Source of the DNA: an uncultured Chlamydiales bacterium
Lineage (GTDB): Bacteria > Chlamydiota > Chlamydiia > Chlamydiales > Rhabdochlamydiaceae
Direction of reading: 5' to 3'
DNA: 64,000 nucleotides
NCBI GenBank assembly: GCA_963700985.1
Contig: OY969554.1
Span: 2,003,303 to 2,067,302 of the forward strand
Position numbers and translations under genes: made by a program. The notes beneath the pieces were generated by a model. It searched no databases and was not told the DNA's origin. It saw only the letters and a list, made by a program, of their open reading frames with translations. The stretch's first letter is position 1; every line of letters begins with the position of its first letter. This document shows, piece by piece, positions 56,503 through 62,323 of this stretch.

Positions 56503-59298
56503 ATGGCATCAGCAGTCTCAAGTGCTAAACCAGCAGCAGCACTTCCTATCCCTGACGGTTTAGCAACGCTTCTTTCTTCTCCCAAAACCCCCTGGCAGAT
56601 TAGTCCGAACCTCTTCGAACGCACACGTAAATTAGCTAGCAGTGATGCAACTAAACCCTATGTAGCTTGTCCTGTTTCACCCTCAGATCCTGAATATGAT
56701 TTTGTGGTGAAATACTTTTTGAATCAAAAACCTCCTGGATTGGGCATTCAGAGCATCGAATGCATCCACAATCCCGTGCAGACTCAAGTTTTTGAAGCTA
56801 CGCTCTTAAGTATGGAAGAGGGAGCCAAGAACTTTCCTCCTTCATGGATGAATGAAGAACCCAAGGCAGAGCGTGCAAGCACCATCGCAAGATGGAAAGC
56901 ACAAACCCTCCAGTTTTCTCCTGTTAAAATCGAATCATCTGATAAGACCAGAATGGTAGTCTCAGCCAAAGTCATCCCTCTTTGGCATGGAACTCCACGC
57001 GATGATGCGATCTGTTCCAGCGGATTTACTTTTTTTGGAAAGTATAAATTAGCCACAACCCAGAAAGGAATCGATCCAAGCACTGATGATGGCTATTTCG
57101 GTAGCGGTGTTTATTTTACCGACAGTGCTCATTATGCCTCGATGTACAGCCCAACCCTACTTCTCAACTGGGTTTCCATGCGCGAACCCTTTCCCGTGGT
57201 CAGCGATGTACGTATTCCAAATGTGGGATCAGACATGCGTGGACTTAGGGCAAAAGCCGCATACAAGGATTATAACTGCCACTTTATTCCCGTAACCTCA
57301 GTAGATCCAAAAGACCCACAAAACATGATCTACCATCCCTGTCATAGCACAGAGCAGCCCGACTGGGATGAGTTTGTTGTCTTTCAGTCTGCGCAAACCC
57401 TCCCGCGTTTCAGAGTAAAGCTAGGTGTCGACTTTCCTGCAGCACCTTCAACTCCGTCCCTAAGTGTAACTGTAAAAACCCTCCAGGGCAAAATTTTAGA
57501 TCTCCTTGATGAAGATCAAATCCAGCAAGATGAAGATCTTCGAATTCTTTTATCCGAAAAAGCAGATGCTCTCGGTTTAATTTCAGACCAGAGCAGCCCA
57601 CTCTCACCTCAAGATCTAGAGTTTTATAATTGGATAGAACAACTCATCAATCCGGCAGGAAAACTCCGCGGCCATGTCAAACAAAAACTCGTTCAGAAGC
57701 CCATCAGCGAAAAACTAGAACACAAAAAACCCTCTCCTCTATCAGCAGCGCCGAGCGCACTAAGTTGGACACCTTCTCCATCTGCTATACCTAGCTTTGC
57801 AGCTCCAGCAAAGAAAGAAGAGAACAAAAGCCCTGCTCCTCCGCATTCCATGTCTCTTGCCTCAGCGGGGCATGTAAGTGTTAATGCCGTCCTTACTTCC
57901 GCTGATCTGAAAAAGATGTTTCCAAAGCTAGAAGTTCTCGATGAGGCAGTTTGGGAAACGCACGCGGATTTAACGGCTTTAGGAATGTCCGTAAAAGACG
58001 CATCGCCTATTGATGCAAACACCATCTCTGTCCTGAAAGCCCTCTTTGCTTCTCTGCAGGTAGAAGGAGATGCAGGGATCACGCTTTTGACCATGCCGAG
58101 AGGACTTACACTAAACAAACTCGTGAAGCTTGCAGCGTTTCCTAAACAGGGCAATGAAGCTAAATTTAGGTACATTGAGGAGGCTTTAAAAGCTTTTGGA
58201 AACGCACCTGTTGACAAGACCTATCGAGTGGCGATCACAAACAGTGTGCTTAAAGGAAGTAGACGTTTGCCTGTAGATAAGCAGCACGAGCTCGTAAAGG
58301 GAATGGGATGCGAAATGCCTGGGGTATTACCAGCAGCAACACTCGCTATTTTAACGTATATGAGTTCGCGAGGAGCGTCTCCTATCCGCCTATTTAGCGA
58401 TAAGCCATGTACCTATACATGGTGTGCAGAAAAGATTGGTGGCCGCAACTTGTCTGTTGGGGGTTTCAACCAAGCTGGCCTTCTCGTCTCCGACGGCCGC
58501 GGCGACACCTTCCTTACAGACCAAGGGATTTACGGCGTTGGGGGAATGCGAAAGTTCACAGTGGTTAACCTCGCAGCTACCACCTCTGCTGATCTGAAAA
58601 AGATGTTTCCAAAGCTAGAAGTTCTCGATGAGGCAGTTTGGGAAACGCACGCGAATTTAGATGCTTTAGGAATGTCCGTAAAAGACGCATCGCCTATTAA
58701 TGCAAACACTATCTCTGTCCTGAAAGCCCTCTTTGCTTCTCTGCAGGTAGAAGGAGATGCAGGGATCACGCTTTTGACCATGCCGAGAGGACTTACACTA
58801 AACAAACTCATGAAGCTTGCGTCATTTCCCAAACAGGGCAATGCGGCTAAATTTGCATACGTAGCGTCGGAGATCTTAAAGGAATTTGGAGACACAGCTG
58901 TTGACAAGACTTATCGAGTGGCGATCACAAACTATGTGCTTAAAGGAAGTAGAGGGTTATCCGCAGATAGGCAGCATTCTCTCGTAATGAGAATGGGATG
59001 CGAAGTGCCTGGGGTATTACCAGCAGCAACGCTCCCTATTTTAACCTATATAAGTTCTCGAGCATCGTTTTTTCGATCCCCAACCCGTTTATATGGCCAT
59101 AAGTGGGGTGAGTACGCAACCTTTACGCGTTGTACAGAGAAGGCTGGAGGGATTCGCCCCGGTAGCTACAACGTAATTGTTGGGAGCTTCGGCCCAGAAG
59201 GCGGGAACTTATCCCAGCGGGCTGGCCTCAACGTCGGCGTCGACGAGTTTCCCATGGGGGATTGCGGTGTCGGGGGACTACGGAAGTTCATTGAATAA
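56503..59298 (+). CDS. PARP-like ADP-ribosyltransferase domain plus two CLec/DGR-target-like repeats (paralogue 1)
   Basis: LWHGT, GYFGSGVYFT, HYA..Y, DEFVVF; P/S/A linker; two ~220 aa repeats ending GVGG.RKF. Confidence 0.8.
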   Translation: MASAVSSAKPAAALPIPDGLATLLSSPKTPWQISPNLFERTRKLASSDATKPYVACPVSPSDPEYDFVVKYFLNQKPPGLGIQSIECIHNPVQTQVFEATLLSMEEGAKNFPPSWMNEEPKAERASTIARWKAQTLQFSPVKIESSDKTRMVVSAKVIPLWHGTPRDDAICSSGFTFFGKYKLATTQKGIDPSTDDGYFGSGVYFTDSAHYASMYSPTLLLNWVSMREPFPVVSDVRIPNVGSDMRGLRAKAAYKDYNCHFIPVTSVDPKDPQNMIYHPCHSTEQPDWDEFVVFQSAQTLPRFRVKLGVDFPAAPSTPSLSVTVKTLQGKILDLLDEDQIQQDEDLRILLSEKADALGLISDQSSPLSPQDLEFYNWIEQLINPAGKLRGHVKQKLVQKPISEKLEHKKPSPLSAAPSALSWTPSPSAIPSFAAPAKKEENKSPAPPHSMSLASAGHVSVNAVLTSADLKKMFPKLEVLDEAVWETHADLTALGMSVKDASPIDANTISVLKALFASLQVEGDAGITLLTMPRGLTLNKLVKLAAFPKQGNEAKFRYIEEALKAFGNAPVDKTYRVAITNSVLKGSRRLPVDKQHELVKGMGCEMPGVLPAATLAILTYMSSRGASPIRLFSDKPCTYTWCAEKIGGRNLSVGGFNQAGLLVSDGRGDTFLTDQGIYGVGGMRKFTVVNLAATTSADLKKMFPKLEVLDEAVWETHANLDALGMSVKDASPINANTISVLKALFASLQVEGDAGITLLTMPRGLTLNKLMKLASFPKQGNAAKFAYVASEILKEFGDTAVDKTYRVAITNYVLKGSRGLSADRQHSLVMRMGCEVPGVLPAATLPILTYISSRASFFRSPTRLYGHKWGEYATFTRCTEKAGGIRPGSYNVIVGSFGPEGGNLSQRAGLNVGVDEFPMGDCGVGGLRKFIE

Positions 59299-62323: not shown

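Follow-up and report, generated by a model that had tools for sequence, protein, structure and literature searches.

Two neighbouring paralogous genes of an uncultured Chlamydiales bacterium, here termed genes A and B, carry four variable segments that are interpreted, with a probability of about 0.82, as fossil variable regions (VRs) of a diversity-generating retroelement (DGR). The genes lie in a 64,000-nucleotide stretch of DNA (family Rhabdochlamydiaceae; assembly GCA_963700985.1, contig OY969554.1, positions 2,003,303–2,067,302 of the forward strand). This stretch, referred to as the window, is the terminal 64 kb of a 2,067,302-bp genome that is assembled as one contig, is 99.03% complete and has a G+C content of 44.8%. 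Each gene encodes two tandem copies of a domain of ~215 residues, A1 and A2 in gene A and B1 and B2 in gene B. The variable segments, or tails, are the final 35–45 codons of each copy.

The DGR of Bordetella phage BPP-1 combines an AAC-rich template repeat (TR), adenine-specific mutagenesis, the Avd protein plus a reverse transcriptase (RT), and a GC-rich boundary of the initiation of mutagenic homing (IMH) type. It is proposed that, in an ancestor or donor of the window genes, adenine-specific error-prone reverse transcription and retrohoming would have rewritten the AAC codons of such a template into NNC codons in the tails. The cassette would later have been lost, leaving ten clear tails and one distant paralogue frozen as a fixed set of binding specificities. 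Following this loss, the tails would have decayed through ordinary mutation, including NNC to NNT changes and indels.

Codon pattern of the tails

The codon strings with which a preliminary description of the window characterised the four tails are all present and in frame. Across the tails, the codon after GGG is GGT, AGC, AAC or GGC, the codon after TTC is AAC, GGC, TCC or ACC, and the codon after GGC-Leu is CTC, AAC, AGC or CGC. Ten consecutive codons end in C in the first tail (A1), as do 10 of 12 in the fourth (B2). The same description held that the tails are rich in C at the third codon position (C3), while the rest of these genes favours A/T-ending codons. Correspondingly, C3 is 47% in the tails of gene A (85 codons) and 52% in those of gene B (71 codons), compared with 22% and 20% in the remainder of the respective genes, where A- and T-ending codons together make up 60%.

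In the body of the domain, the mean pairwise difference among the four copies at codon positions 1, 2 and 3 is 0.153, 0.123 and 0.216, which is the normal order. At the 12 aligned codons of the variable core the order is reversed, with values of 0.64, 0.68 and 0.36. When the tail cores of all ten clear copies in the genome are considered, 114 of 198 codons end in C, where the codon usage of the genome would predict 55.2 for these amino acids (z = 9.7). The tails thus display the NNC pattern of a DGR variable region, a pattern that is not unique to them in this genome. A1 and B1 display it even though they lie 261 and ~270 codons from the stop codons of their genes.

DGR cassettes in related Chlamydiales

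The B2 domain was searched for in 40 related genomes and is present in nine, often in multiple copies. A search of the same 40 with the RVT_1 model located short RTs, separated from domain copies by no more than a few hundred bases, in genomes G009, G015 and G014. The G009 locus (L019) comprises two targets followed by an RT of 350 residues (RVT_1, 74.2 bits), a bAvd protein (70.8 bits; cut-off 40) and a template of ~83 nt, and both targets end in the same ...VVGGF...GL...GVGGLRKF tail as the window copies. The G015 locus (L020) holds Avd, RT and TR plus an F-box target. Additional cassettes occur in G005, which belongs to the genus of the window, and in G110, G111, G084, G117 and G014 (L022–L027). 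The relatives' cassettes reside on large contigs (0.5–1.9 Mb), adjoining a target. RTs of the group II intron type in these relatives (427–525 residues, ~150 bits on RVT_1) were set aside as unrelated to the cassette by size and score only.

Mismatches between the relatives' VRs and TRs are concentrated at adenines. The 11 VRs compared, from six loci, depart from the template at 98 of 207 adenines and at 24 of 718 non-A positions, and 12 of those 24 stem from one old VR. The VRs therefore agree with the TR at 694 of 718 non-A positions, and most match it exactly in the 3′ end. The G005 VR is mismatched at 14 of 21 A and 2 of 74 non-A positions, and lies on a different contig from its TR. As judged by these features, the relatives' cassettes are canonical DGRs. 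Genomes bearing such RTs are labelled Rhabdochlamydiaceae, Parachlamydiaceae, Waddliaceae, Simkaniaceae or unclassified Chlamydiales, with two labelled Verrucomicrobia and Patescibacteria. More distant RTs are found in Amoebophilaceae (57–59% identity) and Patescibacteria (~45–49%).

Another genome of the window's genus, G004 (99% complete, six contigs), gives no RT match, yet it contains a VR that fits the G005 TR, with mismatches at 14 of 21 A and 5 of 70 non-A positions. G004 is apparently a second, younger case in this genus of a VR without a cassette in the genome. From the G005 cassette, together with the G004 VR that fits its TR, it follows that the genus has had DGRs.

VR and TR are normally equal in length. 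Seven of the 11 live VRs (at L019, L020, L024, L025 and L026) exceed their template by 3 or 6 nt, always within an AAC run, which suggests codon-wise slippage in cDNA synthesis or homing.

Relationship of the tails to foreign templates

The eight TRs of the relatives share one design. The preliminary description had foreseen a template beginning GGG AAC TTC AAC and continuing, in its second half, as GGC CTC AAC GTC AAC AAC AAC. This second, 21-nt string is present exactly in four of the eight TRs, differs by 1–2 bases in three others, and one TR is different. The first half was not borne out, as the relatives' TRs have GGC and GCN/GGC at these positions, without adenines. Several templates hold an internal GAG codon, which explains the GAG conserved in tails A2, B2, D, E and F (letters from C onwards denote other copies in the genome).

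A nucleotide profile was built from the eight foreign TRs only and run with nhmmer, with filters off, against the whole 2.07-Mb genome. It returned eight matches at E < 1, all of which are tails, and nothing else in the genome. The top match is the tail of B2 (E 2.5e-10), whose putative fossil VR spans 62231..62320 on the + strand, with variable codons at ~62258–62296 and an invariant, IMH-like end at 62297–62320. This is followed by the tail of the eleventh, distant gene (1.4e-9) and that of copy E (7.6e-9), and then by B1 (1.2e-7), with a putative VR at 61419..61510 (+), a core at ~61433–61486 and an IMH-like end at 61487–61510. The tails of D (2.6e-6) and C (9.2e-6) come next. The putative VR of A1 (58455..58557, +; core ~58468–58533, invariant IMH-like end 58534–58557) is matched marginally, at E 0.099. 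That of A2 (59173..59289, +; core ~59191–59265, IMH-like end 59266–59289), the longest tail and one with insertions, is not matched significantly (E 0.26).

The conserved end of the tails had been proposed to be the IMH. In the relatives, TR/VR homology does end exactly in such a motif: it stops inside CGGAA, with G as the following base on the VR side and A on the TR side. Tails A2 and B1 have the boundary motif CGGAAG intact, and A1 and B2 depart from it by 1–2 bases. Beyond the boundary, an element of ~90 nt with YTTGG words approximately every 10 nt is common to several genera (L019:5521-5625, L025:8809-8913, L110:2390-2494), and here it follows B2, C, E and F. Behind B2 it is degenerate (62321..62400, +), with periodic YTTGG words and then a hairpin that has just a 6-bp, AT-rich stem. 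The corresponding stems are GC-rich, of 10 bp in G009 and 9 bp in copy E. This hairpin was dropped as a membership feature, as a perfect GC-rich stem of at least 9 bp follows only 1 of 10 relatives' VRs, plus copy E. The post-VR element may be a target-recognition or terminator element.

Homology to DGR targets extends over the full length of genes A and B. Gene B aligns end to end with a PARP-like target of G110 (L024:5525-7492), with 36% identity over 672 residues (E 5e-112), and the VR of that target is mismatched to its TR at 8 of 19 A and 0 of 67 non-A positions. The tails are thus homologous to VRs with adenine-specific mismatches. When aligned to the best foreign TR, the ten tails of this genome are mismatched at 115 of 207 A and 210 of 694 non-A positions, an odds ratio of 2.9 that is confounded by loop position and TR divergence; for the four window tails the values are 44/84 and 75/279. 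This adenine enrichment is real but supportive only. Overall, the earlier proposal that the tails were mutagenised in the past from an AAC-rich template, one that "exists or existed elsewhere", is upheld in that cassettes in relatives of the same family and genus target the same domain, while none is found in this genome.

Absence of a cassette and divergence of the tails

In the window's genome, PF00078 (RVT_1) has no match at E ≤ 1, a profile of six chlamydial DGR RTs has none at E ≤ 10, and the best tblastn match to the G009 RT has an E value of 0.05 over 44 residues. Similarly, PF22296 (bAvd) has no match at E ≤ 10 in the genome, and no Avd is among the tblastn matches listed for the G009 Avd. 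As controls, the same RT queries match the relatives, and the G009 Avd scores 70.8 bits on PF22296. Searches of the genome for a template (blastn-short with the four tails and with the G009 TR, and nhmmer with the eight-TR profile) return paralogue tails only. The non-coding copy with A-biased mismatches that the preliminary description recommended looking for is therefore absent here, although the templates of relatives read largely as it had foreseen. RT, Avd and template of a complete, active DGR are all lacking from this genome.

The 24-nt invariant 3′ ends differ pairwise by 3–15 nt among the ten tails (median 9) and by 4–9 nt among the four in the window, in agreement with the earlier suggestion that some tails are old. 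Identical invariant positions, as in co-targeted VRs maintained by one TR, are not found, and diversity at codon position 3 within the invariant end is 0.65. In the cores, the NNT codons TAT, TTT, CAT, GAT, AGT and CCT fit C-to-T decay of NNC. As RT, Avd and template are missing and the invariant ends have diverged at synonymous sites, the tails are considered fossil rather than active VRs. Some of their length variation is native to the system, given that 7 of 11 live VRs outlength their TR by 3 or 6 nt; the larger insertions in A1 and A2 are probably later events.

Population data come from Logan contigs only, in which the A1, A2 and B1 tails are mostly uncovered and rare variants are invisible. 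One contig, from run X1, covers the B2 tail with a one-letter difference. A 154-nt soil-metagenome contig from run X3 matches positions 62231–62284 except for seven differences, and its further sequence is an AAC-rich string resembling a template; it may derive from a related organism that still holds the cassette.

Domain family and predicted fold

In-frame tblastn of the genome identifies ten clear copies of the ~215-residue domain in eight genes. Each of the other six copies sits behind a partner, which is PARP-like in one gene (the third of this kind), a Sel1-repeat protein in another, an F-box protein in two and a protein with no Pfam match in two more. An eleventh, distant copy is located at 1024469–1025359 (−) of the genome (L111:969-1859) and has 25% identity to the domain. 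The end of this copy is VR-like (...GGC CTG CGG AAG TTT) and includes a run of 10 C-ending codons. With the eleventh included, the copies occupy five genomic places, with tandem duplication.

The domain is not recognised by any Pfam or NCBIfam model. In a collection of 5.8 billion proteins it has 35 near-length relatives at E ≤ 1e-5, 25 of which carry F-box Pfam labels, and the only names among the 35 are 'F-box protein [Chlamydiales bacterium]', 'F-box-like' and 'hypothetical protein'.

An AlphaFold (AF2) model of B2, computed from an alignment of 19 sequences, has a pLDDT of 93.4 and a pTM of 0.92. Foldseek searches with this model return C-type lectin domains (CTLDs) in nearly all top rows, at weak significance (E ≥ 0.03). 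With VIA-align, the FGE-like domains of SenA (Z 8.7) and EgtB (Z 8.3) come out on top. Three variable proteins of DGRs, TvpA (7.9), Mtd (7.1) and TaqVP (5.8), are within the top 18 of 48,161 chains; an FGE paralogue reaches 7.5, and many further CTLDs score Z 5–6. The Z values are moderate, and it is the consistency across matches that supports a C-type lectin (CLec)/FGE fold for the modelled domain. This is the usual fold of DGR variable proteins.

C-rich gene ends and alternative explanations

C3 excess conditioned on the amino acid was scored as a z value in 20-codon windows over the last 40 codons of open reading frames (ORFs). The tails reach z values of 4.1–5.2, but among the four in the window just A1 (up to 4.6) and B2 (up to 5.2) pass z ≥ 4, and genes B and C also have windows of z ~4 outside their tails. 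Runs of at least ten C-ending codons number 13 in 1503 crude ORFs, against ~0.3 expected under independence. The caveat in the preliminary description that many gene 3′ ends are C-rich anyway was well placed, in that C3 in the tails is far above chance, yet not specific to them. C3 richness was rejected as a stand-alone DGR detector: some ordinary gene ends are as C3-rich or richer and score equally high, and for this reason C3 alone is unable to carry the DGR claim. The absence of a template combined with ordinary C3 enrichment had been named as grounds for abandoning the idea. Within this genome one half of that combination applies, as the template is absent, whereas C3 is elevated without being unique; the case rests on comparative evidence and not on C3.

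C-rich gene ends are a wider feature of this genome. A subset of ordinary genes has strongly C3-rich 3′ ends that are poor in G at the third position (G3), an example in the window being the last ~25 codons of 54398–55129, and codons −6 to −20 show a mean C3 excess of +0.03 genome-wide. Among the 60 gene ends richest in C3, C3 is 0.58 and G3 is 0.12, and a convergent neighbour is present in 31 of 60, compared with 576 of 1757 overall. One idea is that C-rich, G-poor gene ends are tied to transcription termination of the Rho type.

Several observations weigh against a DGR origin of the tails. The z test places 51 of 1749 unrelated ORFs at z ≥ 4 within the final 40 codons (highest value 6.5), and the signal in the two gene-terminal tails could be partly a genome-wide gene-end effect. 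The matches of A1 and A2 to the TR profile (E 0.099 and 0.26) are poor. Adenine specificity is not directly demonstrable for the four tails because there is no template from this lineage, and foreign TRs mismatch the tails at 27–30% even of non-A sites. Furthermore, the A sites cluster in the loop, and therefore the excess mismatch cannot separate a DGR history from plain loop hypervariability. The tails vary in length by up to ~15 codons, compared with VR–TR differences of +3 or +6 nt in the relatives. Fold Z values of 7–8.7 lie in the range that the tool calls common for unrelated models. Finally, a plasmid absent from the one-contig assembly could in principle carry the cassette.

One alternative would involve no DGR history: the tails would be a fast-evolving surface loop in an expanded paralogue family, and their C-ending codons would reflect the genome-wide gene-end tendency. 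Such an account fits the z values of ordinary ORFs (51 of 1749 at z ≥ 4, up to 6.5, versus 4.1–5.2 in the tails), the passing of that threshold by just two of the four window tails, the indels among the tails and the lack of an RT or TR in the genome. It is nevertheless very unlikely, as A1 and B1 are patterned despite lying 261 and ~270 codons from stop codons, and a profile made from foreign TRs finds tails exclusively in 2.07 Mb. The tails also share the VR boundary motif with verified VRs, B2, C, E and F share the post-VR element in addition, and full-length homologues are active DGR targets. Moreover, synonymous sites are saturated in the invariant end but are kept as C in the core, which codon bias alone does not predict. 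In a different scenario, the genes would have arrived in an already diversified state, by horizontal transfer from chlamydiae that bear DGRs, and this lineage would never have had a cassette. In its favour, of five genomes searched from the genus of the window, just two contain the domain, both as weak matches (E 5.7e-11 and 2.0e-8), the top foreign hit comes from a different genus (G008, 51% identity), and the RT clade spans several chlamydial families plus Amoebophilaceae. Transfer of this kind is considered unlikely, however, given that the presence of eleven copies at five places, with duplication in tandem and 5′ parts that are almost identical, speaks for a long stay and an expansion within the genome, and that both the G005 cassette and the G004 VR fitting the G005 TR belong to the window's genus.

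It is highly improbable that the tails are live VRs, some or all of which are still diversified in trans by a DGR cassette that sits on a plasmid, a phage or an unassembled segment. DGRs with remote targets have been described (PMC8144416), and the separate contigs of TR and VR in G005 are compatible with such an arrangement. The run X3 contig, with its B2-like start and AAC-rich string, is a hint only and maybe belongs to another organism. Opposing this scenario, no RT, Avd or TR is found in the 99%-complete single-contig genome, and the relatives' cassettes lie beside a target on contigs of 0.5–1.9 Mb. The invariant ends differ by 3–15 of 24 nt at non-A positions, and because these positions disagree, a single TR could not be maintaining the tails. 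The run X1 contig differs from the B2 tail by one letter, although contigs hide rare variants. The favoured explanation thus remains that the four tails are fossil VRs.

Gene architecture and window layout

Gene A (56503..59298, +) encodes a protein of 931 residues with a PARP-like N-terminal domain, a linker and the tandem copies A1 and A2. Its paralogue, gene B (59501..62323, +; 940 residues), has the same architecture with copies B1 and B2. The PARP-like (ADP-ribosyltransferase-like) domain spans residues 155–306 in gene A (56965..57420, +) and residues 156–305 in gene B (59966..60415, +). Against Pfam PF00644 the two score 26.1 and 23.6 bits, under the curated cut-off of 26.7 (gene A just under it), and homologues in the relatives exceed this cut-off with 28.2 and 27.1 bits. 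Among PDB sequences, the PARP-like domain of gene B matches PARP4 alone, and weakly (E 0.53).

Copy A1, with its predicted C-type-lectin/FGE-like fold, is internal to gene A (57898..58560, +), and A2 is C-terminal (58585..59295, +). Similarly, B1 is internal to gene B (60860..61513, +), and B2, the copy used for the structure model, is C-terminal (61670..62320, +). The first ~250 nt of A1, A2 and B1 (57891–58150, 58575–58830 and 60849–61100) are almost identical in DNA, and the tails are the most divergent parts; this suggests gene conversion in the 5′ half of the domain copies.

The intergenic space between genes A and B is flanked by a 25-nt inverted repeat with 92% complementarity (59319–59343 and 59458–59482). 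An 18-nt word of this repeat recurs as a second inverted pair 12 kb upstream, at 47355–47372 and 47439–47456 (four matches versus none expected), and metagenome contigs end or diverge at the inverted-repeat sites of the window. The repeat looks like a small repeated palindromic element or one resembling a miniature inverted-repeat transposable element.

Comparison with known systems

Most DGR targets known to date are binding proteins of surfaces or tail fibres. The Mtd protein of phage BPP-1 (PDB 1yu0) resembles B2 in having a C-terminal VR in a C-type-lectin fold (Z 7.1, root-mean-square deviation 3.9, 119 aligned residues). Unlike the BPP-1 system, the window's genome lacks RT, Avd and TR, and the carriers are not phage tail-fibre proteins but bacterial multi-domain proteins with PARP-like or F-box partners, with two VR-bearing domains in tandem per gene in the window. 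TvpA of Treponema denticola (PDB 2y3c; Z 7.9, 141 aligned) and TaqVP of Thermus aquaticus (PDB 5vf4; Z 5.8, 148 aligned) have the FGE-type CLec fold, and in both the VR accounts for the terminal strands and loop, as in B2. Their sequence identity to B2 is 9–12%, and the window genes differ in their N-terminal eukaryote-like enzyme or adaptor modules. In Legionella pneumophila, which is likewise an intracellular bacterium of protists, the DGR target LdtA has a CLec-type C-terminal VR. LdtA is a surface-displayed lipoprotein, in contrast with the catalytic or adaptor domains predicted here, which are typical of effectors acting inside the host.

Among the closest systems are the Chlamydiales cassettes described above (such as L019/G009, L020/G015, L024/G110, L025/G111 and L023/G005), which share the domain family, VR architecture, boundary, post-VR element and full-length PARP-like targets. 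They differ from the window in possessing bAvd, RT, TR and VRs that match the TR at 694 of 718 non-A sites, where the window has no cassette and its tails have diverged. Expanded F-box, BTB and U-box effector families with LRR or TPR/CHAT C-terminal modules have been described in Parachlamydiaceae (Domman et al. 2014, PMC4209131). As described there, these families are also multi-copy, and a ubiquitin-ligase module of eukaryotic type is joined in them to a C-terminal binding module that varies; here, however, the binding module is a CLec-fold DGR target. Neither 'reverse transcriptase' nor 'retroelement' occurs in that paper.

Partner modules and implications

The domain profile matches 33 ORFs in the 80 loci retrieved around RT homologues, and 18 of these, the longer ones not covered elsewhere in the analysis, were run against Pfam. 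Eight of these have an F-box or F-box-like partner, one has RING/U-box plus TPR, one TPR only and one a weak LRR; of the rest, one (Bacteroidota) has NACHT plus HEAT and six have no match. Targets elsewhere in the relatives carry U-box plus TPR (G014, G110 and G111) or a PARP-like domain (G110), and in G111 an upstream ORF combines SidE_PDE with a PARP-like domain. That ORF (L025:1860-3293) has a SidE phosphodiesterase domain (149 bits) and a PARP-like domain (27.1 bits), and lies directly upstream of a broken variable-domain copy with a TR-matched VR. The F-box partner recurs in 8 of 18 RT-adjacent targets, in G015 and in two genes of the window's genome, and partners of the U-box/TPR and PARP-like kinds are recurrent too.

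These partner modules suggest host-directed effectors in chlamydiae that would be retargeted by DGRs, and the proteins carrying the fossil tails are probably host-directed effectors as well. The lectin-fold domain would select a ligand, to be acted on or bridged by the partner module (PARP-like, F-box, U-box or Sel1). No paper linking DGRs to chlamydial effectors is among the matches listed in the open-access literature, which amount to nothing more than taxon labels in survey papers; loci of this kind may already be included in the supplementary tables of PMC8144416. The six terms looked for in a paper on Rhabdochlamydiaceae (PMC9723776) are absent from it as well.

It is tentatively proposed, at a little short of even odds, that the DGRs of environmental chlamydiae rewrite the lectin-fold module of F-box, U-box/RING, PARP-like or SidE-PDE plus PARP-like proteins, which would make these hypermutable, host-aimed ubiquitin-ligase adaptors or ADP-ribosyltransferases. 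The window's genome would then represent an end state, in which the mutator has been discarded and eleven frozen specificities persist as an unchanging set of effectors, with genes A and B each holding two in series. A lost DGR leaves its traces in NNC-rich tails of variable length. Template profiles taken from relatives can pick these out, and they offer a way to extinct DGR targets in genomes passed over by RT-centred surveys. The fusion of a variable domain to eukaryote-like ubiquitin-ligase and ADP-ribosyltransferase modules in obligate intracellular bacteria would, if the proposal is true, amount to targeted hypermutation of effector binding inside the host.

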